A stretch of 64,000 nt of DNA from Nitrososphaerales archaeon (lineage in GTDB: Archaea > Thermoproteota > Nitrososphaeria > Nitrososphaerales > CADDZS01), in the NCBI GenBank assembly GCA_030041355.1, contig JASHNZ010000011.1, positions 97,165 to 161,164 of the forward strand. The letters are read 5' to 3'. The notes below the pieces were generated by a model. It did not search any database. It was not told the origin of the DNA and worked only from the letters and a program-made list of their open reading frames with translations. This document shows, one piece after another, positions 20,490 to 59,070 of this stretch. Position 1 is the first letter of the stretch. Every line of letters begins with the position of its first letter. Both the position numbers and the translations under genes were made by a program.

Positions 20490-21818
20490 GTGTTTTCTTT
20501 GGTGCTCGAATTCAAGTTACCTGACCTTGGCGAAGGGGTTTCGGAAGGAGAGATAGTAAAGTGGCTAGTCAACGAAGGCCAGCAAATCAGAGAAGATGAA
20601 CCGATGGTCGAAGTCATGACTGACAAGGCTACGGTTCAAATCCCATCTCCCACATCCGGTACTGTGAGACAAATACTTGCAAAGGAAGGCCAAACGGTGA
20701 AAGTTGGAACAAACTTGGTTGTGATAGACAATTCTGGAGGAAAGGATGGAGGTTTGGAAGCACAACAAATCGAGGATAAACAATCTCAGCGTCGGAAAGA
20801 AATACAGCCCTCAATGCAGAGCTCACCAGAAAAGCTGCCCTCGCAAAATTCACAAGTCAGTTCGGAAACTCGACGAGTAATAGCTACACCGGCGACTAGA
20901 AAATTAGCCCGCGATTTAGGCGTTGATATTGACGCCTTAGCGGGAACGGGTCCTGGAGGTAGAATCACTGATGAGGATGTCAAGAGGATCGTATCAGGTT
21001 CAAAGCAGCCCCAAAGACCACAGACACAATTAGTCCAAAAAGAAATCGAGCGACCAGTTCAGGAACCTAGACAACAACTGGGCTCCGTCGAACAGGCGCT
21101 ATCAGAGATGGAAGAGAGGGTTCCAATACATGGGATCAGAAAACGAATTTCGGAAAAGATGCTCAGATCAGCTCAGACCACGGCTGCTGTAACGCATATT
21201 GAAGAGGTCGATTTCACAGAGCTAATTGCTCTGCGTGAGGCGACCAAACCTCTCGCGGACGCCCAAAACGTTAAACTCACTTACTTGCCCTTCATAATGA
21301 AAGCTGTTACAACGACTCTGAAGCAATTTCCTTACTTCAATGCAGCTATCGACGAGGAAAAACAAGAGTTTCTAATCAAACACTACTATAATCTAGGGTT
21401 TGCAACTGATACACCTAACGGATTGATCGTTCCTGTTGTAAAGGATGCAGAAAAGAAGAACATCTTTGAAATCGCAAAAGAGATACAGAAATTTTCCGAC
21501 GATGCCAGGACAGGGAAGATAGGTCTACAAGACATTCAGGGAGGAACCTTCACTATTACAAACATTGGAACGTTGGGTGGCGTAATGTCTACGCCTATAA
21601 TCAATGTACCCGAAGTTGCGATCCTCGGAGTGCATAAGATCCAGAAAAAACCGGTGGTTCTAAACAATGAAATTGTCATACGAGACATCGCGTTTGTGGC
21701 ATTGAGCTTTGATCACAGGATAGTGGACGGAGCTGACGCCGCAAGGTTTACGTCAAAACTGAAGCAGTATTTGGAAAATCCGAGTCTGATTTTTGTCGAG
21801 GCTTCTCTAAATGGTTGA
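20490..21818 (+). CDS. Dihydrolipoamide acyltransferase, E2 component of a 2-oxoacid dehydrogenase complex
   Basis: Has a lipoyl domain (VMTDKATVQIPSP), an E3-binding domain (ATPATRKLARDLGVDIDALAGTGPGGRI) and a catalytic domain with DHRIVDGA. Confidence 0.85.
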   Translation: MFSLVLEFKLPDLGEGVSEGEIVKWLVNEGQQIREDEPMVEVMTDKATVQIPSPTSGTVRQILAKEGQTVKVGTNLVVIDNSGGKDGGLEAQQIEDKQSQRRKEIQPSMQSSPEKLPSQNSQVSSETRRVIATPATRKLARDLGVDIDALAGTGPGGRITDEDVKRIVSGSKQPQRPQTQLVQKEIERPVQEPRQQLGSVEQALSEMEERVPIHGIRKRISEKMLRSAQTTAAVTHIEEVDFTELIALREATKPLADAQNVKLTYLPFIMKAVTTTLKQFPYFNAAIDEEKQEFLIKHYYNLGFATDTPNGLIVPVVKDAEKKNIFEIAKEIQKFSDDARTGKIGLQDIQGGTFTITNIGTLGGVMSTPIINVPEVAILGVHKIQKKPVVLNNEIVIRDIAFVALSFDHRIVDGADAARFTSKLKQYLENPSLIFVEASLNG

Positions 21819-21871: not shown

Positions 21872-22825
21872 CTAAATCAACATTGTGAGAACTAACAGCG
21901 ACGCAAAAAGCCAATTCGCAACTAAACTATTTTCTGTAAACGAAACATAGAAAGGCGGAGGGTTGTTTGGCTGTGCGAATGTCGATCGTTTTCGAAGCAA
22001 GAGAAGAGCGGACGCCAGCGGGGCTGCAATTGACCAGATTGGTAAGACACGGACGAGTGCCAAAATAATAACCATGGTAAAACTCAGCATCGTCAATCCG
22101 AGTGAAGCGAAAAGCGCATTTTTTCTTCCCAGAACAGTGCCTAGGCTTAGCTTTCGAGCTTTCGAATAAACTTCGTAGAAAATTAGGTCGTGATCGATCA
22201 ATACCACAACTGTCATTATACCTATTGGGATTGAGACGAGCAGAGCCGATAAATTCAGAGATCCTGTCTGCACGTAATAGGCTCCGAGGACAGGTATAGG
22301 ACCAAACGAAAGAAAGATCGCAAGCTCCCCGAGTCCGATTCCCCTGTAATCTAATTTTAGCGGAGGCGCGCAGTAAAAAAATGCTAGCAGAAACCCAAAG
22401 AGACCTAGGACAAACGCCCAGGGACCCACTACGAGCCAAAAGTATGCGCCAATTGATAAACTAAGTGCAAATAAAATCAAAGAGACAATTTTTCCATCTC
22501 GAAGAGAAATGAAGCCTCGTGGGATAGGTTTCCAACCGCCGAAATCGTTGGGAAAAATTGAGTTTGCAATCTGATCTACTCCATTTTCGTAGTCATAACA
22601 GTCGTCGACCGCGTTGGCTCCGAGATGTAGCAAAGCAACCCCAACGATGACCAGTCCAAGAAAAGCAAAGTCGATACTATGGTGGTTTGAAAAGGCTAGC
22701 GCCGTTCCTGCAAGAGCGGGAAGAATAATTAAAGGAATGAATTGAAATCTTGTGAGTCTCAGGAAGAGAGTGACCTTGCCCGGCGGCTTGCTGTCTCTAC
22801 TAACACTTGCGGGCCTCTCAACCAT
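21872..22825 (-). CDS. UbiA-family prenyltransferase (integral membrane)
   Basis: 317 aa, multi-TM, with an Asp-rich motif (NAVDDCYDYENGVD). Substrate unknown (could be DGGGP synthase, a quinone prenyltransferase, or something else). Confidence 0.65.
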   Translation of the reverse strand: MVERPASVSRDSKPPGKVTLFLRLTRFQFIPLIILPALAGTALAFSNHHSIDFAFLGLVIVGVALLHLGANAVDDCYDYENGVDQIANSIFPNDFGGWKPIPRGFISLRDGKIVSLILFALSLSIGAYFWLVVGPWAFVLGLFGFLLAFFYCAPPLKLDYRGIGLGELAIFLSFGPIPVLGAYYVQTGSLNLSALLVSIPIGIMTVVVLIDHDLIFYEVYSKARKLSLGTVLGRKNALFASLGLTMLSFTMVIILALVRVLPIWSIAAPLASALLLLRKRSTFAQPNNPPPFYVSFTENSLVANWLFASLLVLTMLI

Positions 22826-22920: not shown

Positions 22921-23574
22921 TTATAATCTGCGCGAGAGTGAATCAACCAGAAGGTCCTTTACCCGAACCTGATCTACTCTCTCTAAGGATAGTTCTTTCG
23001 CAATGCTTGTCATGATTCCGGATTCGAATCCGCAAGGTTTGATCTTTTGAAAATATGAAAGATCAGTGTTTACGTTTAGAGCAAGTCCATGATACGTAAC
23101 CCAATGAGAAACTGCCACGCCAATACTTGCAATCTTTCGCGTGTTGTTGATCCAAACACCCGTCTGCGCTCCCAATTTCCCCTTTGCTTGCGTGATTCCC
23201 ATCGCAGAAATCGCTTCTATGATCGAGGCCTCTAAAATCTCGATGAACTGTCTTACCCCAAGGTTTTTCTCTTGCAAGGAAACGATGAGATATACAACCA
23301 ACTGACCCGGACCGTGATAAGTCACGTCACCACCCCTTTCTATCTCGAACATGGGGAGGTCTTTCACCAAGATATTTTCAAAGTGTGAGGATCGTCCCAA
23401 AGTGAGGACATGGTCATGTTCCACGACTATTATGGAATCGCAAATCTTCCCTTCTATCCTTTTGCTCAAGAGCTCCTTTTGAAAATGCCAGACGACTCCA
23501 TAGTCCTTTGAAAAGCCAAGGTCGTATACCTCGATAGCATTTCTTGAGTTGAAAGCTTGAGTTTGCCCATTCAT
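22921..23574 (-). CDS. lipB: Octanoyltransferase LipB (lipoyl(octanoyl) transferase)
   Basis: 217 aa with LipB blocks (RGGDVTYHGPGQLVVY, KIASIGV). Confidence 0.8.
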   Translation of the reverse strand: MNGQTQAFNSRNAIEVYDLGFSKDYGVVWHFQKELLSKRIEGKICDSIIVVEHDHVLTLGRSSHFENILVKDLPMFEIERGGDVTYHGPGQLVVYLIVSLQEKNLGVRQFIEILEASIIEAISAMGITQAKGKLGAQTGVWINNTRKIASIGVAVSHWVTYHGLALNVNTDLSYFQKIKPCGFESGIMTSIAKELSLERVDQVRVKDLLVDSLSRRL

Positions 23575-23584
23575 GTTTTGGAAC

Positions 23585-25033
23585 TCACGCTGTTTGAGCT
23601 TTTGATTGAATTTGCCTGTTCATGATATGAATCGCCTTTCCTTGCGCGTTTTCGGCTGCTTCCATCAAAGTCTCAGAGAGAGTCGGATGCGGATGGACAG
23701 TCAATCCCATGTCATCCAAAGTAGCGCCCATTTCAATCGCTAGACTAGCTTCGCTAATGAGATCGGAAGCCTCAAGCCCTACGATTTCGACCCCCAAGAC
23801 TAGGCCGGAGTCCTTATCGGCCAAAACTTTGGTGAACCCCTCCGACTCGTTTGCTGCGAGAGCCCGAGCATTGGCGCTAAACGGAAACTTTCCTATGGAA
23901 AGTTCGATACCTTTTGACTTTGCCTCTTCCGGGTTTATACCAACTATCGCAATCTCCGGATCCGTGAATATCGCTGCAGGCATTGCCTGAAAGTCCGCGG
24001 CACTGTTCTCTCCACATATTACCTCAGCGGCTACAATGCCTTCTTTCATTGCTTTGTGAGCAAGAAGAGGGCCTCCAACACAATCTCCTATGGCATAGAC
24101 ATTTGGAAGGCTAGTGCGCATGTGCTTGTCGACCCTAACAAATCCCTTGTCGGTAAACTGAACTCCAATGTTTTCTAGGCCAAGTCCCTGGGTATTCGGC
24201 TTACGTCCAACTCCGACGAGAACGTAATCAACAAGTACACTTTGAGACTTTCCATCAGGAGTCTCAAATTCTACGTCAACTTGTTCTTGAATCACTTTTC
24301 CCGAAATCACTTTGCTTTTGGTATTGATCTTTGCGCCAAGTTTCCCGAGCTGTTTCGAAACCAAATTAACAAGCTCAATGTCCGTTCCAGGAAGTAGTTG
24401 ATCTAACAATTCCACAATCGTTAGTTCAGTTCCGAACAGATTCGCGTACGCCATGCCGATTTCTAGCCCGATGACACCTCCTCCAACAAGCAGCATCTTC
24501 TTTGGAACTTCTCGTAGATCCAGGGCTTCTGTGCTTGAAATAATTCTCTTTCCGTCATATTTGAGATTAGGAAGCTCGATGGATGAAGCACCTGTCGCCA
24601 CGATAGCATCTTTAAATGAAATCCTAGAATTTCGTCGGGGGGATCCCTGGATCACTTCAATTTCATTCGGCGAAATATACTTCGCATAGCCTTGTATTAT
24701 TTCGACATGATTTTGTTTGCAAAGGAATTCTACTCCGCTTGTCAGCCGGTGGACTACACTCTGTTTCCAGTCTTGGAGTTTCGAGATGTCAACTTCAACC
24801 TTCGCGTCTATTCCCATCTTTTTTGCTTCGCGCGTATTCTTGACAAGCTTGCCAGCGGTTATGAGGGCCTTGCTAGGGATACAACCCACGTTAAGACAGA
24901 CGCCGCCGACCTTATCTTTCTCGATCATGGCTGTTCTCTTGCCTAGTTGACCCAACCTAATTGCAGCGTGGTATCCTCCGGGGCCTGAGCCTATCACGAC
25001 GGCGTCGAAATTCAACTGCGTTGACGAGTTCAA
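23585..25033 (-). CDS. lpdA: Dihydrolipoamide dehydrogenase, E3 component
   Basis: 482 aa with FAD-binding GSGPGG, the redox disulfide GGVCLNVGCIPSK, and an NAD-binding GGGVIGLE. Confidence 0.9.
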   Translation of the reverse strand: MNSSTQLNFDAVVIGSGPGGYHAAIRLGQLGKRTAMIEKDKVGGVCLNVGCIPSKALITAGKLVKNTREAKKMGIDAKVEVDISKLQDWKQSVVHRLTSGVEFLCKQNHVEIIQGYAKYISPNEIEVIQGSPRRNSRISFKDAIVATGASSIELPNLKYDGKRIISSTEALDLREVPKKMLLVGGGVIGLEIGMAYANLFGTELTIVELLDQLLPGTDIELVNLVSKQLGKLGAKINTKSKVISGKVIQEQVDVEFETPDGKSQSVLVDYVLVGVGRKPNTQGLGLENIGVQFTDKGFVRVDKHMRTSLPNVYAIGDCVGGPLLAHKAMKEGIVAAEVICGENSAADFQAMPAAIFTDPEIAIVGINPEEAKSKGIELSIGKFPFSANARALAANESEGFTKVLADKDSGLVLGVEIVGLEASDLISEASLAIEMGATLDDMGLTVHPHPTLSETLMEAAENAQGKAIHIMNRQIQSKAQTA

Positions 25034-27473: not shown

Positions 27474-28436
27474 CTAGACGTGTAAAAGGCATCCTTCGTC
27501 AAACTTTCTCCCCGTCATCATGTCTCTATAGATTAGGCGGATCTTTCCTTTCTCAAGCTCATCCTCGCTAACACCCAACGAATCTCTGGGTTCTAATTTC
27601 TTTTCATTGAAGGTTTTACTGCCAATGCTGTCGATTATCGCGGGGTTTGTACCTAAATTGAGTAGCCAAACGCACCCTTTATCAGGATAGGTCACGATGA
27701 AAGAACCTTCCTCGACACGTCTGTAGTCATTCGGAGGCAGAAACAAGAGTCTGTCCGTTGGAACTCCCGCCCGAAGTGCAAGCAACTTGAATTCTTTCAT
27801 GATTAGTTCAGAGCGTTTCTTGGTATCTTCAGATAATTTTTGATCGCCAGATTGAGCCTGACCCGAGGATTCTAGAAGTAGAGCCTGGGAGATGCAATAT
27901 CGTATGTAAGCATCAATAACCGTTGATATTGGGTGATACTCGTCGCGAAAGCTCAACGCAATCTTTGACTGCTCATATAACGCAATAGCATTTCTGTACC
28001 CTTGAAGTTTCTCTGGATCGAATTTCTCTAACTTATCTGTGGTCTCAGTAGTGGCACACGCAGAGATGAACGGAGCCAAAAATCCGAAGTGAGCGGTCGA
28101 ACGAAGGATCTGTGTGGCTTCATTGAATTTGGACAGGGCCTCATCAAACTTATTGATTGAAATTGCCAAGCGACCTAATTGTGTTCGACAAAAAGCGTCC
28201 ATAAGTGTAGAATACTCAAAAAGAGCTTTTGCGATATTTTCCTCGGACGATGCCATGTCGAAGAATTTCTGGGCCGCCTGCATAAATTTGGAATAGGAAA
28301 GTTGAAGTTCCGACTTTAGATCGAAGTTGATACCTTCCTTCCAAAGTACGAAAGGTTTCAAGTCTTGTTCAGTTATTCCCATATCAGATTTGCTCAACTC
28401 AAAGTTCGCATACGAAATTTTTGTTAGACAAGCCAT
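27474..28436 (-). CDS. Hypothetical protein, 320 aa
   Basis: Long ORF with an alpha-helical N-terminal half; no recognisable family. Confidence 0.4.
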   Translation of the reverse strand: MACLTKISYANFELSKSDMGITEQDLKPFVLWKEGINFDLKSELQLSYSKFMQAAQKFFDMASSEENIAKALFEYSTLMDAFCRTQLGRLAISINKFDEALSKFNEATQILRSTAHFGFLAPFISACATTETTDKLEKFDPEKLQGYRNAIALYEQSKIALSFRDEYHPISTVIDAYIRYCISQALLLESSGQAQSGDQKLSEDTKKRSELIMKEFKLLALRAGVPTDRLLFLPPNDYRRVEEGSFIVTYPDKGCVWLLNLGTNPAIIDSIGSKTFNEKKLEPRDSLGVSEDELEKGKIRLIYRDMMTGRKFDEGCLLHV

Positions 28437-30811: not shown

Positions 30812-33190
30812 CTAACTCTTCGGTTTCGGTTGAGGCTTATTCTGGTTGGTGCTCTGATCTGTAACCCGACCCGCGGATGTGACAGAAGCCACTTGATTTG
30901 TGGGAGTCGTGTTTTGAATTGAGGTTGATGACTCCTTGTTCTCCGACGTCTGGGGAGCCGATATGGGAACAACTTTCTTTACGTCTATGGCACCAGGAAG
31001 CTTTTCGCTCACGGCAGACTGATTTCTGATGGAAGAAATCGAGCTAGTCATCGAAGAGGCATCAGGTAAGGAAAAGTCAGTTGGTGGGCTTCCCTCGGAA
31101 TTGTTATTTGGCGGAGTTGTTTGTGATCCTTCGTCCATTTTTTGATAGGGAGCTATCGGTGGTGATGGCTTGTTCATCATATTAGCGAGCCAACCGGTAA
31201 ACATCATACTTCCGACCTCCTGTCCACTTGCTCCACTCATGACCACGGTCTCGGGAACCAGCCTGGTGCTGGAGTTCTTTATTTCGTCAAGAGACTTGAT
31301 CAGCGCAATCTTGTCCCCCCCGAGGACGTCCGCCTGTGCATGATAGGCGTCTGCTTGAGCTTCTCCAACTTTGCGTATTGCGGCTGCCTCACCGTCTGCC
31401 AAATTCTTTTGATAGTCTCTTAGTCCTTCTGACTGTCTCCTCACCGCCTCCGCCTTGTTTCGCTCGATGTCGATTTGAAGAATCGCGTTCACGACTTGAG
31501 GCTGCATATTAGCCCTAGCGGTCTGTTCTTGGACGGCTATTCTTTGTTGTTCCGCTTTTGCTTGTTCTTGAAACTGGCTTTGTTGTTGAAGAGCAATTTG
31601 TTTCAGATTCTGAGTATTGAGAAGTGCCTCTCCTTGCTCATTAGAGGGGCGGATGAAAGAAATCAAAAGAGCTTGCGCTTCGACGTGATATTTGCCAAAG
31701 TTCTCCCTTGCGTTCTCGAAGACATATTTCTGAAGATCCGTCCTTGTCTGAAAGAAGTTGAGCGCTTCTTTGTCTCCTGCATCATTTCTGAATGAAGAGT
31801 CGATCAATGGATGGACGATTTGCTGAATGAGGTTGAACACAGTTCCGAATCTGGCTATGACGAAAGCTGCGTTTTCCTGCCTGATCCTGATCACCATCCT
31901 CACTCCAACTTCAAGAAGGAAGCCGTCCTTTGTGATCACTTCCAGCTGACTGAAATTGAAATAGGACACACCTTTCGTGCTCAAGTCCGTTGTGTAGGCA
32001 TAATCTGTAGGATTCGCTACGGAATCTGCCGCCGTTGTCCTAGTCCGGGTAGTGACTGCAGGTCCTGCCATTGTTGGGGCGTTGATCTTGCTCGAATCTG
32101 CCCAGTCAATCATAATTGCACTTGTCGGAACAGCGTAGGCAGTATATGCGATCGTGTTGAGGTTATATGTTCCGGGAGCTAGCGGAGTCTCGTAGATGCC
32201 TCTCTCCGTCATGTCTTCGATCAGAACTGTTTCGACGTCCGAACTGATTCTTTCGCCGGTATCTGCTCCAACAACCTGATTTTGTAAATCTCCGCTTATC
32301 AATTGTCGACCCGTCCGCTCATCAAACATGGGTACCAAGGCTGGTGTTGCATTGGGCTTATGAAGTTCAGGGCCTACATTGGATCTCAACACAGCCACAA
32401 AACCGGGCTCCACCTCATACTTAGCCAAAACTGTTACTTTGAAAAGCAGGTCGTTGATGAAATACTTCCCCGGTTGGAGGGTATCGAGCTGGGGCCCTCT
32501 GTATCCGCCGCTATCAATGAACGCTTGCCCATCTTGGAAGTGTTTGTGGCCTCGAGCCATCGGAAATTTATCATTGGCTGATTCCGTACATTGTGGCGCG
32601 ATGATGTAATTCGAGGGAAGCGGGATTCCGTCTTGAGCTATCACGATGCCAGTGCTATTTGCATCAATAACAATAGTGGCTTTGATTACGACTTTGAACA
32701 ACAGGGGGTTGATTCTGTAGCTTCCAGGTGTCAAGACGCCAACTTGCTGACCTTTCTTACCGTGATTTGCGAGGAAGCCCTCCCCATCTTGGAATCTGTT
32801 ACACTCTACCTCATCCCCGGTAAATCTTCCCGGAAGTAGAGGTTCACCGTCTATTGCTTCGATTGTTCCAACTTGATCGGGTCCTATTTCAGTAATGTCG
32901 AACTTTCGGACCGACCAAAAGAGAGGGATTCGCCAATAGAGACCTGGCTGAAGCGTCCCAGCCTGAATGCCAATCTGGCCTTGTCTTGCAATAATTTGTC
33001 CCGGCGGCATTCTCTGCCCGCCGAATTTCTTTGTTAGTACTCCGACTTGATTCGCTTTGATCAGGAACAGGCCCCTACCGACAAAAACGTAAACCAGTAT
33101 CAATGCGAGAATTACGAGAAAGAGTAACAGGTCTATTGTTGCAGGGGATACTGAGCTCGTCGCAAGTATTCCTGTTTGAAAATTGTACAT
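30812..33190 (-). CDS. Flotillin/SPFH (band-7)-domain membrane protein, unusually long (792 aa)
   Basis: N-terminal TM, SPFH-like core, and a Gln/Ala-rich coiled-coil (QQQSQFQEQAKAEQQRIAVQEQTARAN) typical of flotillin/YqiK. Three copies of an LxPGxY.IN.LLFKV beta-module. S/T/N/P-rich C-terminal tail. Confidence 0.7.
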   Translation of the reverse strand: MYNFQTGILATSSVSPATIDLLLFLVILALILVYVFVGRGLFLIKANQVGVLTKKFGGQRMPPGQIIARQGQIGIQAGTLQPGLYWRIPLFWSVRKFDITEIGPDQVGTIEAIDGEPLLPGRFTGDEVECNRFQDGEGFLANHGKKGQQVGVLTPGSYRINPLLFKVVIKATIVIDANSTGIVIAQDGIPLPSNYIIAPQCTESANDKFPMARGHKHFQDGQAFIDSGGYRGPQLDTLQPGKYFINDLLFKVTVLAKYEVEPGFVAVLRSNVGPELHKPNATPALVPMFDERTGRQLISGDLQNQVVGADTGERISSDVETVLIEDMTERGIYETPLAPGTYNLNTIAYTAYAVPTSAIMIDWADSSKINAPTMAGPAVTTRTRTTAADSVANPTDYAYTTDLSTKGVSYFNFSQLEVITKDGFLLEVGVRMVIRIRQENAAFVIARFGTVFNLIQQIVHPLIDSSFRNDAGDKEALNFFQTRTDLQKYVFENARENFGKYHVEAQALLISFIRPSNEQGEALLNTQNLKQIALQQQSQFQEQAKAEQQRIAVQEQTARANMQPQVVNAILQIDIERNKAEAVRRQSEGLRDYQKNLADGEAAAIRKVGEAQADAYHAQADVLGGDKIALIKSLDEIKNSSTRLVPETVVMSGASGQEVGSMMFTGWLANMMNKPSPPIAPYQKMDEGSQTTPPNNNSEGSPPTDFSLPDASSMTSSISSIRNQSAVSEKLPGAIDVKKVVPISAPQTSENKESSTSIQNTTPTNQVASVTSAGRVTDQSTNQNKPQPKPKS

Positions 33191-33569: not shown

Positions 33570-34898
33570 TTGAAGGATTTTCTAAGAGAGCTGGATCAGA
33601 AAGGAAAACTGAAGAGAGTGTCTAAGGAACTATCCACAGATCTCGAGATCTCCTCCGTTCTGTTTGCTCTTCAAGATCAGGCAATGTTGTTTGAGAGAGT
33701 CAGCGAGAGCCATCTCAGTGCTGCCGGAAATATCTATGCAACTCCTGAGTTGATGAAACTCGGATTGGACATCCCTCAAGGTCAGGAACTGGCGGAATTT
33801 GCGGGCAATTCAATTGCAGCTCCGGCATCCATTAAGGGTCATGTGTCCAGTTTTGACAATTCTGCTTGGGACTATAATGTACAAGCAGATCTGAAGGAGC
33901 TCCCGATATTGAAGCATTATGACAAGGAGGCTGGAAATTACATCACGGCGGGGATTGTCGCGGCAAAATTTCCTGGAACAGATCTGGAGAATCTTTCCTT
34001 CCATAGGATGCTCGTCCTATCCAAGAATAAATTGGCAGCTAGGATTGTGCCTAGACATTTAGATCAAATCGCAAGGGAAATGGATCGACAAAAGGTTCCC
34101 GTAAGCATTGTAATCGGGCCGCCCCCAGCCGTGTTTCTAGCAGCCTCATTACAAACTGAGTATGGATTAAGCGAATACAAAATCGCGAACAAGATGATGG
34201 ACCAAAAGTTGGAGCTTAACACGTCTGAGCTCAACGATATTGCCGTCCCAACCGATTCTGAAATTGTATTGGAGGGATATTTGGATTATCAGGAGCTTAC
34301 GAAAGAGGGCCCCTTTGTTGATCTGACTGGAACCTATGACGACATCCGCGAGCAACCCGTGATTACTATTCAGCGAATGCATTACAGAAAGGATTCTGTT
34401 TATCAAATCGTTCTTGCAGGTTCGAAAGAGCATGCCCTGTTCATGGGACTCCCCCAGGAGCTAAAGATTAGAAACGTCCTTTCCAGGTCAATTCCGAAAA
34501 TCCGCGGCATTAACTTAACGCCTTCAGGCAATGGATATTTTCATTGCGTCGTTAGCATCGAAAAGGCGAATGACGGCGATGGCAAGACAGCCATAATGAA
34601 TTGCCTTGCAAGCTCACACCCGTTGAAGCTTGTCATCGCCGTGGATATTGATGTAGATCCCTTCAATCTTTCCGACGTGGAGTGGGCTCTGGCGACAAGG
34701 TTTCAAGCCGATCGGGGACTGGTCCAAGTTAATGGTGCGAGGGGATCGAGCCTCGATCCTTCAAGTGGAAAATCAGCTGTTACAAGCAAACTTGGTCTGG
34801 ACGCCACATTGCCGTTAAAGGGAGACAAGAGCAAGTTCGAAAGGGCGAAGATCACTCTGAGTCCTGTTGCGGCATCCGTGATCTCAGCTGCCAGCTGA
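33570..34898 (+). CDS. UbiD-family decarboxylase; candidate trans-anhydromevalonate-5-phosphate decarboxylase
   Basis: 442 aa UbiD-like. It sits immediately upstream of the AcnX large and small subunit genes. Confidence 0.7.
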   Translation: MKDFLRELDQKGKLKRVSKELSTDLEISSVLFALQDQAMLFERVSESHLSAAGNIYATPELMKLGLDIPQGQELAEFAGNSIAAPASIKGHVSSFDNSAWDYNVQADLKELPILKHYDKEAGNYITAGIVAAKFPGTDLENLSFHRMLVLSKNKLAARIVPRHLDQIAREMDRQKVPVSIVIGPPPAVFLAASLQTEYGLSEYKIANKMMDQKLELNTSELNDIAVPTDSEIVLEGYLDYQELTKEGPFVDLTGTYDDIREQPVITIQRMHYRKDSVYQIVLAGSKEHALFMGLPQELKIRNVLSRSIPKIRGINLTPSGNGYFHCVVSIEKANDGDGKTAIMNCLASSHPLKLVIAVDIDVDPFNLSDVEWALATRFQADRGLVQVNGARGSSLDPSSGKSAVTSKLGLDATLPLKGDKSKFERAKITLSPVAASVISAAS

Positions 34899-34941
34899 TA
34901 GCCTAAAGTCTCTGACAATCAAGGAATGCTGATGCGGCAGT

Positions 34942-36120
34942 TTGTATCTTACTCAGAGTGAAGAAAAGGCTCTTGCGGGAGAGTACGGCGAACCACTCGA
35001 AATTGCATACAGAGTTCTCCTGGCAATCGGAAGACTCGGGAACGCTGAGAGGTTAATTCCGATCAAGTGGGCTCACGTTTCCGGAGTTTCATACCTCACA
35101 ATTGGCGATTATGGGTCAGACTTTCTCCAAAGAATCAGCAAAATAAAGGGTACAAAGTTCAAAGTCTTCACGACCGTAAATCCGTGTGGGATGGACGTAG
35201 AAAATTGGGATCGCCTTGAAATACCGCCGGAGTACGCAGAGAAACAACTCAAAATCATCAGCGCTTATCAGAAGCTAGGAATCGCAAATTCATTCACATG
35301 TGTGCCATTTCAATCCTATCCGGTGCCTGCCAAAGGAACTCATGTTTCATGGGCTGAATCCTCAGCAGCTATTTACGCAAACTCCATTCTTAATCTAAGA
35401 ACAAACAGAGAAAGTGCCGTCAGCGCTCTGGCAAGCGCATTGACAGGAAAGACGGTCTACTCCGATCTTCACATAGACGCAAACCGGAAACCCAAATTCG
35501 CAATCAGAGTAAAGTTTTCCAGTAGGAGGCGTTTGATTGGATCTGTCGATTACGGCATTCTAGGATATTTTGCGGGAAAGGTTACGGGAGGAGTAATTGA
35601 GTTTCAAGGTATTAATTCCGGCATGAACCTAAGTGAATCAAAGGCTCTGTGTGCCGCAGTCGGAACGGTTGGTAGCTCTGGCATGTTCACGTTTGGCCGC
35701 TCAAAGGATCTTGAGTGCATGGACTTTACGGAAAAGGAGTATTCGAACACTTTTGAGGAAATCTCAGATGCCAAGGATGGTGACGCTATCGTCTTCGGAT
35801 GCCCTCAAATGACAATAGAAGAGCTTTATCAGTTGAGCAAAGATTTGATCGGAAAACACTTCAAAAAAAGGTGCATCGTATTCTGTTCTTCAAAAGTTTA
35901 CGATCTTGCTAGGTCAAGAGGATATGCGGGCGGCATCGAAAAAGCTGGCGCGACTTTTGTGCGGGACTCATGTGCTGATTTTACGCCACTGATATCTTCG
36001 TTGAAGGTGAGTTCGGTTCTGACAGATTCCGCTAAGGGGGCGCATTATATGAAACGAGTTCACGGGATGAAAATAGCCCTGAAGGACACCAAGACAATTC
36101 TTGAGCAGAATCTGAATTGA
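34942..36120 (+). CDS. Aconitase X catalytic (large) subunit; candidate phosphomevalonate dehydratase large subunit; TTG start
   Basis: 392 aa. The first in-frame start is TTG at 34942 (frame opens at 34933, no ATG or GTG before it). Confidence 0.7.
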   Translation: MYLTQSEEKALAGEYGEPLEIAYRVLLAIGRLGNAERLIPIKWAHVSGVSYLTIGDYGSDFLQRISKIKGTKFKVFTTVNPCGMDVENWDRLEIPPEYAEKQLKIISAYQKLGIANSFTCVPFQSYPVPAKGTHVSWAESSAAIYANSILNLRTNRESAVSALASALTGKTVYSDLHIDANRKPKFAIRVKFSSRRRLIGSVDYGILGYFAGKVTGGVIEFQGINSGMNLSESKALCAAVGTVGSSGMFTFGRSKDLECMDFTEKEYSNTFEEISDAKDGDAIVFGCPQMTIEELYQLSKDLIGKHFKKRCIVFCSSKVYDLARSRGYAGGIEKAGATFVRDSCADFTPLISSLKVSSVLTDSAKGAHYMKRVHGMKIALKDTKTILEQNLN

Positions 36121-36563
36121 AGAACGCCCAAGAACCCAAATCTTTCAATGCTATTCGCCCAAGGATAGCTCGGGTAAGATGCATAGTTGAAGCATCTAGG
36201 GTGATTGAGGGCGAAGTGCTTTTTTCCTCCAGCCCTATTGCATTTCTTCAGGGTGTCGATCCTGAGAAGGGAATCGTGAGTGAGAAGCAACATGAGATCT
36301 ACAACAAACCATTTGCGAACAAAATCCTCGTGTTTCCGAATACAGTCGGCAGCTCTGTAGGGGCGTACGTGATTTATAGATTGAAAGAGAATCGAGTGGC
36401 TCCTAGAGCGATGATCAATCAGGTTTCTGACATCATTACGGCATCTGGCTGTGCGCTATCCGCCATTCCTCTCTTTGACCTCCCCAACAGCAAAATTAGC
36501 GAACTAAGTAAGACGAAAGAAATCAAAATAGAAAAGAACTCGCAGATTATTGTTAGATCATAA
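36117..36563 (+). CDS. Aconitase X swivel (small) subunit; candidate phosphomevalonate dehydratase small subunit
   Basis: 148 aa. ATGA overlap with the large subunit. Confidence 0.65.
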   Translation: MKNAQEPKSFNAIRPRIARVRCIVEASRVIEGEVLFSSSPIAFLQGVDPEKGIVSEKQHEIYNKPFANKILVFPNTVGSSVGAYVIYRLKENRVAPRAMINQVSDIITASGCALSAIPLFDLPNSKISELSKTKEIKIEKNSQIIVRS

Positions 36564-36617: not shown

Positions 36618-36917
36618 GTGCCAAAGAGAAATTCAGTCCTGATTTTCTTTATCGCGGGCGCAATCTTTCTGGTTGTTCCCTTGATTCTGGTGCTTTTCTG
36701 GGATGGTCCTAGTTGCGGCTTCGGGGATAAGTTTTCAGTTGTGCCAAACGACTACTGCCTTTCTCCGCGTCTTCTGAAAAGCTTCGCCTCATTTTTCCCG
36801 TTCCTGATGGTTATAGGAGCGGTTCTGATAGGCTACAACCTAAAGAGAATCTCTGATTCTTATCTTCCACCAAAGGAAGAACCCGACGAAGACAATTCAG
36901 AGATTAGCGAGACATAG
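36618..36917 (+). CDS. Small hypothetical membrane protein
   Basis: 99 aa, 2 TM helices. Confidence 0.3.
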   Translation: MPKRNSVLIFFIAGAIFLVVPLILVLFWDGPSCGFGDKFSVVPNDYCLSPRLLKSFASFFPFLMVIGAVLIGYNLKRISDSYLPPKEEPDEDNSEISET

Positions 36918-36925
36918 AAATTAAC

Positions 36926-37594
36926 ATGGCAGGAACCAATTTTTCACGCAGGTCAATTAGAAAAGGCATATTGAGGATTGAGGCCCTAGTAGTTCCTCCT
37001 TTGGCGAATAATGTGTACATTCTGTATGAGGATGGATCTGACGACGCATTGATTATTGATGTGGCCCAAGGAGCAAATCCGCTGTTTGAGCGAGCAAAGG
37101 AATTAGAAGTAAGACCCTCAATGATAATCAATACGCATGGCCACACTGATCACACCGCAGAGGACGGCCTCCTAAGAAAGATGACTGGAGCGAAGCTAGC
37201 AATACACGAGCTCGACGCGTACAGGCTCGCTTTAGACGATGAAGCTTCTAAAGAATTGGGAATCAAAAAAGAACCAATTGAACCTGACATTCAGCTGACT
37301 AGCGGACAAGAAATCAAGTTTGGAAAACAATGTGTTCTCAAGGTCATTCACACGCCCGGGCATACAGAAGGTTCAATCTGTCTTTACGATGAGAAGGATC
37401 GCCAATTATTGTCGGGAGACACACTATTCCAAGCAGGTTATGGGAGGGTGGACGGAATGGGATCTGATCCCGATACTATGAAATCATCCTTGAAGAAATT
37501 GCTCGAGCTCCCGGGCTCAACAGATGTGTATCCGGGACACGGAGGATTTACAACGATTCAAAGCGAAATGTGGCTGATGGAAATGACCGAGTAA
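36926..37594 (+). CDS. MBL-fold metallo-hydrolase (glyoxalase II-like)
   Basis: Carries HxHxDH (THGHTDHT) and downstream His/Asp ligands (HTPGHTEG, GDTLF). Confidence 0.8.
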   Translation: MAGTNFSRRSIRKGILRIEALVVPPLANNVYILYEDGSDDALIIDVAQGANPLFERAKELEVRPSMIINTHGHTDHTAEDGLLRKMTGAKLAIHELDAYRLALDDEASKELGIKKEPIEPDIQLTSGQEIKFGKQCVLKVIHTPGHTEGSICLYDEKDRQLLSGDTLFQAGYGRVDGMGSDPDTMKSSLKKLLELPGSTDVYPGHGGFTTIQSEMWLMEMTE

Positions 37595-43265: not shown

Positions 43266-44105
43266 TTGACACAAGAGGTCCTTCTTGAAGAACTGGACTT
43301 CATCGCAAAGAGAGTAGTAGATCAATGTCTCTCGGACAAGGGATTCGTCCTATATTCAGGCGGAATCGATAGCGCAATTCTTGCTACTCTAGTAATGAAC
43401 AAGGTTCGGCCAAAAGCTTGGGGTCTCTTCACTTTAGGAGTTAGCGGCTCTCAAGACACTACGAATTTGATTGCCGAAAGCAATCTATGGAATTTGTTGT
43501 CTTCGTTTCGAAGAATAGTACGAGAAATAGATAAGGAGAGAGTCACTGCCGCTGCAAAAGAGACTGCGAAAATCGTTAATGTCCCGTCCATTTCGCACTT
43601 TGAAGATTGCACGGCTTTTTATTTGATTTGCGAGGAGATCAACAAAATAGCAGAAGGCAAAGATAGCATACTACTTTCTGCTAACGGTCCGGACGAACTA
43701 TTTTGCGGCTACGATAGGTTTAGGCGGATCGTTGATGAAGGTGGTTACAAGGCAGCAGAGTTAGAGATAACTCGAGCTCTTGATCTATCGAATATTCTTC
43801 GTGCCCAAGTAAGGTTAATTGCGACTCATTTCGAACTTGCCATCCTCGAACCTTTCTTTCAAACTGATTTTGTAAATTTTTGTTCGAAAAAAATCCCTAT
43901 CGAGTTAAAGATTCTAAAAAATGGCGATATGCTTCGAAAGAGGATCTGGCGCCGTTACGGAGAATATCTCAGTATTCCAAATGAAATTGTCACGAAGCGC
44001 AAAAAGGCAATGCAATATAGCATGGGGATCCACAAATCTATACTATCTCTAGTGAAAAGAGGAGAACTAACCATTGAAAGAGATTCTCTTAAGGCCACCA
44101 TTTGA
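43266..44105 (+). CDS. Asparagine-synthase-domain-like PP-loop ATP pyrophosphatase (no glutaminase domain); TTG start
   Basis: PP-loop SGGIDS and an Asn-synthase C-domain-like block (NGPDELFCGYDRF). 4-nt overlap with the downstream ftcD-like gene. Confidence 0.55.
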   Translation: MTQEVLLEELDFIAKRVVDQCLSDKGFVLYSGGIDSAILATLVMNKVRPKAWGLFTLGVSGSQDTTNLIAESNLWNLLSSFRRIVREIDKERVTAAAKETAKIVNVPSISHFEDCTAFYLICEEINKIAEGKDSILLSANGPDELFCGYDRFRRIVDEGGYKAAELEITRALDLSNILRAQVRLIATHFELAILEPFFQTDFVNFCSKKIPIELKILKNGDMLRKRIWRRYGEYLSIPNEIVTKRKKAMQYSMGIHKSILSLVKRGELTIERDSLKATI

Positions 44106-45697
44106 TAGAGATGTTTTCAAAAAACGCTAGTAGAGCACATAACATCTTGAAAATCGTCGAATGCGTTCCCAATTTCAGCGAGGGTCGAAGGCCGGATGTG
44201 ATTGAAGCCATAAGGAATGCTGCAGAAGCCATTGAAGGAGTGACGGTTCTCGACTGCGAAAACGATCCTAATCACAATCGAATGGTCCTGACTTTTGTTG
44301 GCCCACCAGAAGCGGTGAAGGAAGCTGCTCTTGCGGCAAGCGCTGTCGCGATCAAATTCATAGATCTTAGGACTCACAAGGGAGAGCACCCGAGAATGGG
44401 AGCGGTAGATGTAGTTCCCTTCGTCCCGCTAAGAGAGATTTCGATGGATGAATGTATTACACTTGCGAATGAATTTGCCGTGGAATATTCAAAACGATTC
44501 GGAGTACCGGTTTTTCTCTACGAATTCGCGGCCAAAAGACCAGAAAGGAAGGATCTCGCAAACGTCAGAGAGGGCCAATTTGAGGGTCTTAGAGACTCAA
44601 TTGGAAAGGATCCATCAAGAGACCCGGATTACGGACCGAAGGCAATCAATCCTACAGCCGGGGCGACCGCAGTGGGGGCACGGCCCATTCTTATCGCATA
44701 CAATGTGAACTTGGCTACAACTGACCTCTCAGTTGCAAAGAAGATAGCGCACCTTGTAAGAGGAAGAGATGGTGGTCTTCCGACCGTCAAGGCTCTTGGC
44801 TTTGAGCTAAAGGACCGATCAATCGTCCAAGTTTCTATGAATCTAACCGATTACAAGGTCAGCTCTATCTCCCTGGCTTTCGACCAAGTTTCAAAACACG
44901 CCGCAGAGTTAGGAGTACAGGTTCTTGAGAGCGAAATAGTAGGTCTAGTTCCATTAGACGCCCTAACCGAAGCAGCCACTTCTTATCTTAAGTTATCCAC
45001 TTTTAATTCAAACCAAATAATAGAAAATCGTCTCTTCAACTTGGCAAGTAGTACGCCTAGAACAGACTTGGTCGAGACTCGGCAGACCGATGAGGATTTT
45101 TCGAGAATGTCTTTGGCAGATTTTGCCTTGTCCGTCTCGTCAAAGGAACCTACGCCCGGAGGGGGAACAGTTGCAGCTTATACCGGGGTTCTTGCGGCTT
45201 CACTCGTAGTCATGGTCTGTGCTTTGACTCTTGGCAAGAGAGGATACGAATCAGCTTTTGGGAGGGCAGCTGAAATCCAACTGGAGGCAGAAGAATCAAA
45301 AAGAAAATTGCAGGATCTCGTGAATAGAGATTCCGCTGCTTACTCAAAGGTGTCAAAAGCACTTGCGCTTCCAAAGGGAACAGACAGCGAAAGGGCCGAA
45401 AGGAAGACTATGATCGACGTTGCGACGAAGGAGGCAACCGATGTGCCAGCCGAAACGATGACAGAGTGCGTGAAAGTTCTAAAACTTGCACAGGAAATTC
45501 TGCTAATAGGGAATAGGAACGCGAAATCTGATGCAGAAACAGCAATGGAACTTGCGAGAGCTTCAGCTAAAGGTGCATGGAGCAACGTCAGGATTAATCT
45601 CGACGCATTGTCTTCGGATGTCAATTATGTGGAAACAATAACGGCTAAACTGCAACCCGTCATCAACGAAATGTATAGTGATCCTTCGAGAAATTAA
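44102..45697 (+). CDS. ftcD: Bifunctional glutamate formimidoyltransferase / formimidoyl-THF cyclodeaminase (FtcD-like)
   Basis: N-terminal formiminotransferase domain (VECVPNFSEGR, HPRMGAVDVVPF) plus a C-terminal cyclodeaminase-like domain (PTPGGGTVAAYTGVLAASLVVMV). Confidence 0.7.
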   Translation: MIEMFSKNASRAHNILKIVECVPNFSEGRRPDVIEAIRNAAEAIEGVTVLDCENDPNHNRMVLTFVGPPEAVKEAALAASAVAIKFIDLRTHKGEHPRMGAVDVVPFVPLREISMDECITLANEFAVEYSKRFGVPVFLYEFAAKRPERKDLANVREGQFEGLRDSIGKDPSRDPDYGPKAINPTAGATAVGARPILIAYNVNLATTDLSVAKKIAHLVRGRDGGLPTVKALGFELKDRSIVQVSMNLTDYKVSSISLAFDQVSKHAAELGVQVLESEIVGLVPLDALTEAATSYLKLSTFNSNQIIENRLFNLASSTPRTDLVETRQTDEDFSRMSLADFALSVSSKEPTPGGGTVAAYTGVLAASLVVMVCALTLGKRGYESAFGRAAEIQLEAEESKRKLQDLVNRDSAAYSKVSKALALPKGTDSERAERKTMIDVATKEATDVPAETMTECVKVLKLAQEILLIGNRNAKSDAETAMELARASAKGAWSNVRINLDALSSDVNYVETITAKLQPVINEMYSDPSRN

Positions 45698-51599: not shown

Positions 51600-52703
51600 T
51601 TGCCGAAGGCAATCTTTGCTTCTCAGAGAATCAAATGGGGAGTCTCAATTGACAACATGTGGGACTACGCGGACGTACAGCAACCAAAGTCCGCGATTAT
51701 CCCTTACCTCATTTCCTTCAGACTTCCCAGAGGTCCAACAAGATACTTCCCAGACATTGATCCCAAGTCTGTGGAATCTGAAATTCAGCAAGAGACGTCA
51801 GTAGGAAACGATAGAGACACTGAGGTAGTTTGCAAAGAGCTTGCCGCTGAACTAAAGAACAGGAGCATGGATTTTGTGCGTTGCTGGTTTCCATGGAATT
51901 TCTTTGAGCCCAAGATTGATTCTGAAGAGTTGAACTACAAGTTTCCACTTGATGATTTCGTGTCAGCTATGAATGCAGAGAATATCGGAATCGTGGCAGT
52001 TCTCGCTTGCGGATATTCGCGGTTTCTGCCTGAAGGCCTGAAAGCAGATGATTCAAAGGTATACATTGATCGCATGGTCAAAATGGCAATGTCTGTAATC
52101 GATCATTACAAAGATTCTGTCTCGGCGTGGCAGATTGAAAACGAGCCCAACTGGTGGGATGAGCACTATGCAACTCACTGGAGAAGCGGGGGCATGTGGC
52201 TAGAACCGGGAACGCAGGAGCTAATCCTAGGCGCCCTACATGACACAGTCAGAAGGCAAGACTCAGACGGACTTATATTGATTAACCTCGAGGCTGACAA
52301 CAAGAAGACCAATTGGTCATTTTATTCAAAATATTGCGACATCCTCGGTCTCGATTTTTATCCTAATTACATGCATTCCATCCCCGTCGACGCTTCAGAA
52401 CTGAAATTCTCTTCCGAAGTCAAAAAGGCAACTGGGCTCCCAGTTTGCGTCGCTGAGACCGGCTATCCTTCAGGCCCTTCCTTCTGGGGGTACGATGTTG
52501 CAAAACAAAGCGAGTACGTCGAATCCGCGTGCAAAGAGAGTTTAGCTTGCGACGACATTACAGCTCTTTGTATGTGGCGATTTTCGGATTCTTATTGGAA
52601 ATCATTTCCCTTCCAGGAAAACTACTTTGGTCTCTTGACCAAAGAAGGCTTGCCCAAACCGGCTTGGGGGACTTATCACGATGAAATAGTTGCCGGGCAT
52701 TAG
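51600..52703 (+). CDS. Glycoside hydrolase, clan GH-A type
   Basis: Acid/base motif (WQIENEPN) and nucleophile motif (VAETGYPS) at the spacing expected for a clan GH-A (beta/alpha)8 enzyme. Confidence 0.6.
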   Translation: MPKAIFASQRIKWGVSIDNMWDYADVQQPKSAIIPYLISFRLPRGPTRYFPDIDPKSVESEIQQETSVGNDRDTEVVCKELAAELKNRSMDFVRCWFPWNFFEPKIDSEELNYKFPLDDFVSAMNAENIGIVAVLACGYSRFLPEGLKADDSKVYIDRMVKMAMSVIDHYKDSVSAWQIENEPNWWDEHYATHWRSGGMWLEPGTQELILGALHDTVRRQDSDGLILINLEADNKKTNWSFYSKYCDILGLDFYPNYMHSIPVDASELKFSSEVKKATGLPVCVAETGYPSGPSFWGYDVAKQSEYVESACKESLACDDITALCMWRFSDSYWKSFPFQENYFGLLTKEGLPKPAWGTYHDEIVAGH

Positions 52704-53160: not shown

Positions 53161-53676
53161 TTAAAAATTATGCGAACGTGATGAAGCTGTCCTGACTTCA
53201 TCTAACTTTGATTGTATTCTTTCTAGGGCCTGGGATACAGCTTTGTCCAATTTTTTCTGCAGCGAGTCATTTTCTCCTTTGAACGTAGATTCGAGAATTT
53301 GTAGGGCCTCCTCCATCCCGAACTTTTCCGTCTCAGGCACCGATCCGGTATCTCTTCTAGTAAAGGTCCAAACCAGCGCCCACATGCCAAGTTCGATCAG
53401 AAATAAGTGAACTTGGCCTTGCCTAGATCCCTGCGCGAGTGCGAAACTCACCGAATAACGCTGCCTTAACATTCTGATTGCCGGTTCTTTCTCAGACATG
53501 AGTGCAGGTGGGCCTCTTCCAGAGAAGAGATCATCAGCCTTGGCCAGGCCTTTGTCACGATCTTCACATGTCATCTGAATCGATACGGACTCACCCATAT
53601 TTCTAACTTGAGTATTTCGTGAACTCTGATAAACATAGAAAATAAATTTCGGTCGATGACTCACCTGTGATTTCAA
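53161..53676 (-). CDS. Hypothetical protein
   Basis: 171 aa ORF; start uncertain. Confidence 0.35.
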   Translation of the reverse strand: MKSQVSHRPKFIFYVYQSSRNTQVRNMGESVSIQMTCEDRDKGLAKADDLFSGRGPPALMSEKEPAIRMLRQRYSVSFALAQGSRQGQVHLFLIELGMWALVWTFTRRDTGSVPETEKFGMEEALQILESTFKGENDSLQKKLDKAVSQALERIQSKLDEVRTASSRSHNF

Positions 53677-53974: not shown

Positions 53975-55472
<1,498 letters not shown>

Positions 55473-55534: not shown

Positions 55535-55649
55535 AAATTAGATATGCAGATCCTCACGTTGAATGAGGATTGAAGGACGTAGCAAGCGTCTGTTCCGCTT
55601 GTGATGATCGTCGTGCACAGGTTGCGTATGCGTTCGTCGATAATGTAAT

Positions 55650-59070
<3,421 letters not shown>

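Follow-up and report, generated by a model that had tools for sequence, protein, structure and literature searches.

Three contiguous genes in the 64-kb stretch of DNA analysed here (the window) very likely encode the dehydratase and the decarboxylase at the core of the archaeal (Aeropyrum-type) mevalonate pathway, two enzymes for the archaea-specific middle part of the route to isoprenoid-lipid precursors; their source is a soil-type archaeon of the Nitrososphaerales. The initial annotation had read the genes as a module of this alternative route, and that reading is supported by the type IIb character of an AcnX subunit pair, and a deeply conserved gene order in which a UbiD-family gene precedes the large- and then the small-subunit gene. 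In the proposed scheme, the two AcnX subunits would form a heterodimeric [4Fe-4S] dehydratase, phosphomevalonate dehydratase (PMDh), predicted to convert (R)-mevalonate 5-phosphate into trans-anhydromevalonate 5-phosphate. The UbiD-family enzyme, trans-anhydromevalonate-5-phosphate decarboxylase (AMPD), would then use prenylated FMN to decarboxylate this α,β-unsaturated acid to isopentenyl phosphate, which a kinase encoded elsewhere would convert to IPP. The trio is an ordinary pathway module that has already been described, not a new system. Its presence would place the standard core of the archaeal mevalonate pathway in a Nitrososphaerales archaeon, which matters little beyond correct annotation.

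Layout of the locus

The contiguous UbiD and AcnX genes reported by the initial annotation were recovered as three ORFs at the same coordinates, all on the + strand, and each matches its family at scores well beyond chance. The first (33570..34898, 442 aa) encodes a UbiD-family, prenylated-FMN-type decarboxylase, the putative AMPD; the second (34942..36120, 392 aa) encodes the large, catalytic AcnX subunit, and the third (36117..36563, 148 aa) the small, swivel subunit, which would be PMDh's large and small subunits. As the first two genes are separated by a gap of only 43 nt and the last two overlap by 4 nt, the trio is probably co-transcribed. This overlap had been given as ATGA, but the large-subunit gene ends with ...AAT TGA and the small-subunit gene starts with the TTG at 36117, so that the shared letters are TTGA. 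A TTG start had also been pointed out for the first gene; this is correct, but it is not a feature of that gene alone. In-frame stops lie 9–12 nt upstream of all three starts and force a TTG start in each gene, and in the small subunit a conserved N-terminal strand upstream of V29 likewise requires it. We considered the triple TTG as a regulatory oddity and rejected the idea, since TTG starts are nothing unusual in this lineage, where 15 of 49 genes called in the neighbourhood at related loci have one. The window is archaeal by its 16S and 23S rRNA, and the homologues carry Nitrososphaerales names.

The AcnX pair

In a Pfam scan the large subunit matched AcnX (PF04412) with 379 bits and an E value of 3.5e-113, and the small subunit matched AcnX_swivel (PF01989) with 93 bits. 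A search of the PDB gave the type II AcnX of T. kodakarensis (TkAcnX, or TkPMDh; TK1249/TK1248, 7CNR/7CNS, PMC8184944) as the best solved relative of both: TK1249 (7CNR_A, E 1.3e-60) for the large subunit, and TK1248 (7CNR_B, 2.6e-24) together with AF0055 for the small one. The pair has the traits of type IIb. Its large and small subunits are separate products of neighbouring genes, and C120, C287 and C344 line up with the cysteines of TkPMDh as well as with Cys122/297/356 of Aeropyrum pernix PMDh (sites A, 1 and B), while site C, two positions after C344, is occupied by D346 and not by a cysteine. In A. pernix, where APE_2078 (AMPD) and a PMDh pair including APE_2087.1 carry out the same pathway chemistry, mutagenesis has shown that these three cysteines hold the [4Fe-4S] cluster (Komeyama et al. 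2023, PMC10040528). The large-subunit residue E139 matches A. pernix Glu145.

The substrate pocket points the same way. Eleven residues of TkAcnX contact mevalonate 5-phosphate: G48, V49, S50, N53, N79, E129, S130, S131, K361 and Y365 of the large subunit and T63 of the small one (PMC8184944). When these were mapped by hand from the HMMER alignment, nine of the 11 proved identical in the window proteins (G48, V49, S50, N80, E139, S140, S141, K365 and Y369), N80 being the counterpart of the type-II-specific Asn79. The other two are conservative changes: Thr53 replaces Asn53, and in the small subunit Ser80 replaces Thr63, within a GSSVG loop that aligns with the substrate-contacting GSTVG loop of TkAcnX. 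The window proteins further depart from TkAcnX in an insertion (DVENWDRLE..., ~9 residues) that follows the NP(A/C)G motif, and in a small-subunit N-terminus longer by 16 residues.

Alternatively, the pair could be a type I AcnX, that is a hydroxyproline dehydratase, which shares the superfamily fold and is homologous over both subunits. The type I enzyme, however, is a fused single chain that holds a [2Fe-2S] cluster through cysteines at sites A, B and C and acts on a different substrate, whereas the window subunits are separate and show the type IIb cysteine pattern without a site-C Cys. In the PDB search its match to the large subunit (3e-35) falls short of that of TkPMDh by ~25 orders of magnitude, and the profile scores for this reading, 195 and 50 bits, compare with a cut-off of 700. 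The phosphate-binding G48-V49-S50 and the type-II-specific Asn are both present, and no proline or hydroxyproline catabolic genes adjoin the pair. We find a type I assignment hardly credible. The AcnX pair can instead be securely assigned, at the level of sequence, to type IIb AcnX, and hence to a predicted phosphomevalonate dehydratase; every sequence-level test for type IIb agreed with the function first proposed for these genes.

The UbiD-family protein and its substrate

The product of the first gene has the three-domain architecture of its family (UbiD_N, UbiD and UbiD_C at 191, 113 and 46 bits in Pfam), scores 366 bits against TIGR00148 (cut-off 245) and aligns over its full length with solved UbiD enzymes. 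Residues N141, R146, E202, E246 and D251 align with N147, R152, E210, E254 and E259 of HmfF and with their equivalents in E. coli UbiD (EcUbiD); by Fdc1 numbering (N168, R173, E233, E277 and E282), we take the Asn and the first Glu to be the family's metal/prFMN-binding positions, and the Arg with the Glu...Glu/Asp motif to be its catalytic ones.

Which acid the enzyme decarboxylates is less readily told from its sequence. Its best solved relative is the 2,5-furandicarboxylate decarboxylase of Pelotomaculum thermopropionicum (PtHmfF; 6H6V, E 5e-70), which has the same fold family and length and 34% identity, and shares not only the catalytic residues but also the furan-specificity histidine (H296, here H288). 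In addition, most thaumarchaeal homologues are named '2,5-furandicarboxylate decarboxylase 1' by JGI. The gene might then specify a decarboxylase of (hetero)aromatic acids, HmfF-like or of another kind, and be no more than a neighbour of the dehydratase genes, with some other enzyme carrying out the decarboxylation of the mevalonate pathway. Overall similarity is equal to AMPD and to HmfF: a profile HMM built from 25 PMDh-adjacent UbiDs gave 433 bits for the window protein and 426 bits for PtHmfF, and at 102 clade-conserved columns the two matched 76 and 77 times, respectively. Against Methanosarcina AMPD, PtHmfF is 42% identical and the window protein 38% (the comparison used orthologues from the same genus as M. 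mazei rather than APE_2078 or MM_1526 themselves). With PtHmfF the closer of the two to Methanosarcina AMPD and the HMM scores nearly equal, overall similarity cannot assign the substrate.

Individual residues and gene context do discriminate. All PMDh-linked UbiDs, those of Methanosarcina included, share H288, so that it is not diagnostic for HmfF. By contrast, the window protein has all nine residues that PMDh-linked UbiDs keep without exception and that HmfF, InD or UbiD do not (R158, D251, D257, R260, M292, D361, S393, S394 and T405). PtHmfF differs from this set, carrying L164, G265, A268, N401, R402 and S412 where the window protein matches the PMDh-linked consensus with R158, D257, R260, S393, S394 and T405. 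The nine signature residues may take part in substrate binding. In a neighbor-joining tree, one clade of 122 members holds the window protein together with every one of the 35 PMDh-linked UbiDs, Methanosarcina orthologues among them, and lacks PtHmfF, AnInD and EcUbiD; at a bootstrap of 56, this weakly favours the expected clustering with AMPD rather than with aromatic-acid decarboxylases. PtHmfF is bacterial and without AcnX linkage, whereas the UbiD–PMDh gene order is conserved from 96% down to 46% UbiD identity and in unrelated archaea (see below), and no hmf-type or aromatic-catabolic genes flank the window gene. Finally, the JGI names were given automatically, and AMPD is already the name of one homologue. 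Altogether, we consider a (hetero)aromatic-acid decarboxylase very unlikely. The protein is most likely AMPD, mainly by its gene context, which would make trans-anhydromevalonate 5-phosphate its substrate, and the furandicarboxylate label that public pipelines attach to most thaumarchaeal orthologues is probably wrong. Sequence similarity alone thus fails to separate AMPD from HmfF-type enzymes, while gene context and a few signature residues do. A literature search found no AMPD structure paper.

We also weighed a quinone-pathway decarboxylase, either UbiD proper or an enzyme of the futalosine-route SCO4490 type, acting in menaquinone synthesis with a MenA-like UbiA protein encoded in the window. 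The protein does match the corresponding profiles, but weakly and far below their cut-offs: 181 bits against 496 for TIGR03701 (menaquinone biosynthesis decarboxylase) and 175 against 788 for the UbiD equivalog NF008175. Of the solved relatives that we compared, EcUbiD stands furthest from the protein, with 31% identity confined to the core. A score below cut-off was likewise obtained with the VdcC profile NF041204 (230 bits against 650). As to the UbiA-family ORF (21872..22825, - strand), the initial annotation was right that it encodes a prenyltransferase of this family, MenA-like although below all cut-offs. However, the gene lies 11 kb from the trio and on the opposite strand, within a 2-oxoacid-dehydrogenase/lipoylation cluster, and a relative keeps this cluster as such. 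On these grounds we rejected a functional link between UbiA and the trio, including the suggestion that it might use the isoprenoid product, and regard the quinone-pathway reading as extremely improbable.

Gene order and neighbouring genes

The assignment of the first gene as AMPD draws on how persistently it accompanies the dehydratase genes. The trio is kept in seven relatives whose UbiD proteins are 96, 76, 67, 63, 61, 49 and 46% identical to the window copy, and in the most distant of these it is retained although the flanking genes are wholly different. The same arrangement is found in Methanosarcina mazei for MM_1526 (AMPD), MM_1525 (PMDh-L) and MM_1524 (PMDh-S), with which the pathway has been reconstituted in E. 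coli (Yoshida et al. 2020, cited in PMC12547664). These three carry consecutive Gene IDs and represent the same three families, contiguous on one strand in the order decarboxylase, large subunit, small subunit. The orthologues that we recovered from the genus Methanosarcina have the same layout as the window trio at only 37–38% identity for the decarboxylase and 37–39% for the large subunit. The window trio differs from that of M. mazei in the 4-nt overlap of its large- and small-subunit genes and in having TTG at every start; moreover, Nitrososphaerales add two conserved downstream genes, described below.

Among 73 informative metagenomic PMDh-L loci, a same-strand UbiD gene lay within 200 nt upstream in 21, and some UbiD gene was present in the locus in 42. 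The order UbiD, large, small appeared in ~40% of the unrelated archaeal loci sampled (linkage count 21–31 of 73). Since ~42% of the informative loci have no UbiD nearby, the linkage is frequent and not obligatory. In A. pernix, judged by locus tags, the decarboxylase gene presumably lies apart from the dehydratase genes, for which we take APE_2089 to be the partner of APE_2087.1. Six of the metagenomic loci are Methanosarcina-like; one of them encodes a protein 100% identical to the Methanosarcina protein P0270, and an equally close match, P0272 of M. spelaei, bears the UniRef name AMPD. The gene order that was first put to use with M. mazei is therefore widespread. Direct searches for the M. 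mazei genes added little. A degenerate pattern back-translated from the primer-encoded N-terminus MTYRDFIG of the AMPD returned only nine chance bacterial matches in genome contigs; its Methanosarcina relatives read MTYRDFID at this end, so the pattern was missed through a mismatch in the primer-derived last residue or in the native start codon. A two-anchor pattern for the termini of M. mazei PMDh-S had no match in metagenome contigs, and a literature search linking PMDh or AMPD to Thaumarchaeota was unproductive.

For the remaining pathway genes we scanned the window with Pfam, covering 41 ORFs of 150 aa or more that are not nested (seven others were set aside: five that overlap larger ORFs or are nested in them, one within the rRNA genes, and 62051–62530). 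None of the 41 encodes UbiX, a GHMP kinase, an IPK of the amino-acid-kinase fold, HMG-CoA synthase or reductase, or IDI, which bears out the earlier remark that the UbiX-like flavin prenyltransferase is absent from the window. UbiX, MVK and IPK would accordingly be encoded elsewhere in the genome.

Directly 3' of the trio lies a conserved small ORF (36618..36917, + strand, 99 aa) whose product has two hydrophobic stretches predicted to span the membrane and no Pfam or NCBIfam match. No T-run terminator was found between 36563 and 36618, and the ORF is possibly co-transcribed with the trio. At five different loci of Nitrososphaerales the trio is followed by a homologue, and these homologues have in common the motif FPF(L/V)M.IG..(L/I)IGYN(L/M)KRISDS. 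The next gene (36926..37594, + strand, 222 aa) encodes an MBL-fold, glyoxalase-II-like hydrolase (PF00753; TIGR03413 below cut-off). It comes after the trio and the small ORF in the relatives with 96, 76, 67 and 61% UbiD identity, and is absent from the one with 63%; at the 76, 67 and 61% loci the encoded proteins are 69–81% identical to the window copy. Both genes thus accompany the trio in most of the relatives sampled. The trio, the small membrane ORF and the hydrolase could be read as a five-gene module of Nitrososphaerales with a predicted functional tie to the lower mevalonate pathway. The added proteins could, for instance, anchor or channel the pathway to membrane lipid synthesis, or hydrolyse or salvage a phosphorylated or thioester intermediate; if true, the archaeal pathway would have gained a lineage-specific extension. 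We regard such a tie as unlikely.

The UbiD-AcnX trio and its start codons

The trio consists of three consecutive ORFs on the plus strand: a UbiD-family gene (33570-34898; 442 aa; Pfam UbiD_N/UbiD/UbiD_C), the AcnX large subunit, AcnX-L (34942-36120; 392 aa; Pfam AcnX, 379 bits), and the small or swivel subunit, AcnX-S (36117-36563; 148 aa; Pfam AcnX_swivel). ORF listing, Pfam and NCBIfam agree here with the initial annotation, and the NCBIfam UbiD subfamily model TIGR00148 scored the first protein at 366 bits (cut-off 245). With a gap of 43 nt, an overlap of 4 nt and, on reading the sequence, no T-run before the ORFs next to the trio, the three genes are predicted to be co-transcribed. The trio is an already known module, conserved in most archaea according to the review literature: it is the same module as that discovered in A. 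pernix, and, as in the window, the three genes are contiguous in M. mazei, from whose genes the module was rebuilt (MM_1526/1525/1524, in that order, reconstitute the pathway in E. coli, as cited in PMC12547664). Beyond this, the window contributes no more than an orthologue of the module in an uncultured lineage of Nitrososphaerales. What is mildly new is lineage-specific, namely a small two-helix ORF and an MBL hydrolase after the trio, and the probable misannotation of thaumarchaeal orthologues.

The UbiD gene had been noted for a TTG start. Reading the DNA bears this out, but it is not special to the first gene: AcnX-L and AcnX-S also start with TTG. Since an in-frame stop lies 9-12 nt upstream of each, all three starts are forced, and the large/small overlap is TTGA, not the ATGA originally described. 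A later start for AcnX-S is ruled out because the only one in frame, a GTG at residue 29, would delete an N-terminal strand (…RVRCIVEASRV…) conserved at the protein level in relatives, TK1248 and AF0055. Every Nitrososphaerales relative with an identity of 61% or more (including loci L010, L136, L012 and L138) keeps the TTG of the UbiD gene, and most keep that of AcnX-L. As TTG also opens 15 of 49 flanking called genes in related Nitrososphaerales loci, its use in the trio looks like a habit of the lineage rather than operon-specific regulation. In the AcnX-S frame of the 63% relative (L012, 12525-12956), the conserved N-terminal strand KIKVRSIVESNR precedes the GTG called as the start, yet this stretch holds no ATG, GTG or TTG; translation may begin at a non-canonical codon there, or the assembly or the gene call may be at fault.

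The AcnX pair

In a search of all PDB sequences, the closest match to AcnX-L was T. kodakarensis TK1249 (7CNR_A, E = 1.3e-60), and those to AcnX-S were TK1248 (7CNR_B, 2.6e-24) and AF0055. Type IIb AcnX, the class of phosphomevalonate dehydratase (PMDh), has three cluster-ligating Cys at sites A, 1 and B (Cys122/297/356 of ApPMDh) and is without the site-C Cys that type I uses (Komeyama et al., PMC10040528). The equivalents in AcnX-L are C120, C287 and C344; E139 corresponds to ApPMDh Glu145, and the site-C position is D346, not Cys. The mevalonate 5-phosphate-binding residues of TkAcnX have been listed by Watanabe et al. (PMC8184944). Mapped by HMMER alignment, G48, V49, S50, N80, E139, S140, S141, K365 and Y369 of the window pair are identical to them, N80 being the type-II-specific Asn79 of TkAcnX, while N53 (T53) and small-subunit Thr63 (S80) are conservatively changed. 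Closest relatives, Cys pattern and substrate contacts make the proposed identity as PMDh secure at the sequence level. Hydroxyproline dehydratase was rejected as an identity for AcnX, the 195 bits from the NCBIfam model falling far short of its 700-bit cut-off.

The UbiD enzyme and its linkage to PMDh

The UbiD protein can be aligned over its full length with UbiD enzymes of solved structure. It retains the metal and prFMN ligands together with the catalytic Arg/Glu/acid set (N141, E202, R146, E246 and D251, with roles as in Fdc1). Its best solved relative was PtHmfF, the 2,5-furandicarboxylate decarboxylase of Pelotomaculum thermopropionicum (6H6V; E = 5e-70, 34% identity); no structure of trans-anhydromevalonate-5-phosphate decarboxylase (AMPD) was found among the PDB sequences searched. 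UbiD proper, the menaquinone SCO4490-type decarboxylase and VdcC were rejected, the protein falling below all three NCBIfam equivalog cut-offs. The protein's nearest homologues reach 96% identity and stem from soil metagenomes and MAGs labelled Nitrososphaerales. Most thaumarchaeal orthologues (P0006-P0011 and others) carry the JGI name '2,5-furandicarboxylate decarboxylase 1', and only one is called 'anhydromevalonate phosphate decarboxylase'; the automatic furandicarboxylate names are probably misannotations.

The conserved N-terminus of PMDh-L, MYLTKEEE, was used to scan metagenomes and gave 120 loci, 73 of them with enough upstream sequence. In 21 of the 73 a same-strand UbiD gene lay no more than 200 nt upstream; the distance was within 430 nt in about 31, and 42 carried the gene anywhere in the locus, leaving 31 without it. 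A genome scan with a pattern from the M. mazei AMPD primer recovered no AMPD reference. Six metagenomic loci had termini similar to the ones that the M. mazei primers imply, and in a protein search one of these was 100% identical to Methanosarcina sp. protein P0270 and 99% to M. barkeri; UniRef gives the name 'Anhydromevalonate phosphate decarboxylase' to an equally close match, P0272 (M. spelaei). The order UbiD, AcnX-L, AcnX-S on one strand recurs in relatives at 96, 76, 67, 63, 61, 49 and 46% identity, the last with entirely different, informational genes flanking the trio. Downstream of one 40% homologue there is no AcnX pair, and the contig stops within 700 nt. No other argument is as strong as this gene order, kept across such divergence and in Methanosarcina, for our inference that the decarboxylase acts on the dehydratase product.

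We placed the protein in a neighbor-joining tree of 174 sequences: the window protein, 35 PMDh-linked UbiDs (32 from metagenomic PMDh loci, 25 adjoining PMDh-L and 7 nearby, plus 3 Nitrososphaeria homologues adjoining an AcnX pair), 134 representatives of a 50% library, P0118 (a 40%-identical homologue without an AcnX pair next to it), PtHmfF, AnInD and EcUbiD. The initial reading as AMPD is the most likely one, and the tree favours it weakly. One 122-member clade took in the window protein together with all 35 PMDh-linked UbiDs and left the three solved enzymes outside (bootstrap 56%), but overall similarity did not discriminate from PtHmfF: a profile built from 25 PMDh-adjacent UbiDs gave 433 bits for the window protein versus 426 for PtHmfF, and identity to Methanosarcina AMPD is 42% for PtHmfF versus 38% for the window protein. 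Similarity therefore does not settle the HmfF/AMPD boundary. Nor does the furan-specificity His (H296 of HmfF, H288 here) discriminate, because it is invariant in all PMDh-linked UbiDs. Signature residues do separate the PMDh-linked UbiDs from PtHmfF: nine positions 100% (or 97%) conserved in the former are kept in the window protein and differ in PtHmfF (in brackets), namely R158 (L), D251 (E), D257 (G), R260 (A), M292 (G), D361 (E), S393 (N), S394 (R) and T405 (S). The two Arg and the Ser/Thr among them would suit a phosphate-bearing substrate.

In the proposed pathway, mevalonate kinase would provide mevalonate 5-phosphate, from which the [4Fe-4S] AcnX heterodimer would remove water; the prFMN-dependent UbiD enzyme would decarboxylate the resulting acrylic-type acid, trans-anhydromevalonate 5-phosphate, to isopentenyl phosphate, and isopentenyl-phosphate kinase (IPK) would turn this into IPP. 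Both kinases would be encoded elsewhere, the partner genes presumably lying in the rest of the genome. Pfam was run on 41 non-nested window ORFs of at least 150 aa; seven more fell outside the scan (five that overlap a larger ORF or are nested within it, one within the rRNA genes, and 62051-62530). Among those scanned there was no flavin prenyltransferase, as initially reported for UbiX, and no GHMP kinase, amino-acid-kinase-fold IPK, IDI, HMG-CoA synthase or reductase, thiolase or polyprenyl synthase.

Genes around the trio

Downstream lie a 99-aa ORF with two hydrophobic stretches and no family match (36618-36917, plus), a glyoxalase-II-like MBL-fold hydrolase (36926-37594, plus), a 2-hydroxyacid dehydrogenase and an acetolactate-synthase-like ThDP enzyme. 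In five distinct Nitrososphaerales loci the trio is succeeded by a small ORF of this kind (~80-126 aa, two hydrophobic stretches, shared motif FPF(L/V)M.IG..(L/I)IGYN(L/M)KRISDS), and in four of the five the hydrolase comes next; the three hydrolases compared with the window copy are 69-81% identical to it. The stretches concerned in relatives include L136 7051-8033, L137 7000-7946, L138 7153-8302 and L013 4664-4948. The two genes may form a lineage-specific operon extension. Upstream, across a 379-nt intergenic region, a divergent gene (30812-33190, minus), conserved in the 96% relative, encodes a 792-aa protein with a single mid-chain SPFH/band-7 domain and a long Ser/Thr/Pro/Gln-rich C-terminal tail.

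The suggested use of the isoprenoid product by the UbiA-family protein (21872-22825, minus) found no specific tie to the trio. This MenA-like protein scores below every NCBIfam cut-off, and its gene sits between those for E2 and lipoate-protein ligase in a 2-oxoacid dehydrogenase cluster that also has E1 alpha-like and E3 genes (8805-10013, 20490-21818, 21872-22825, 22921-23574 and 23585-25033); the order E2-UbiA-LplA-E3 recurs in L012.

The window also holds archaeal 16S and 23S rRNA genes (53975-55472 and 55649-59074; spacer 176 nt), with no 5S rRNA reported beside the 23S and no tRNA gene found by ARAGORN anywhere in the 64 kb. Six ORFs of 156-367 aa without a Pfam match are putative genes (27474-28436, 59649-60329 and 53161-53676, minus; 51600-52703, 13521-14009 and 14649-15119, plus). 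Finally, this archaeal genome encodes a full-length formiminotransferase-cyclodeaminase (44102-45697; FTCD_N, FTCD, FTCD_C), which in L012 is conserved alongside an Asn-synthase-like gene and an aminotransferase.
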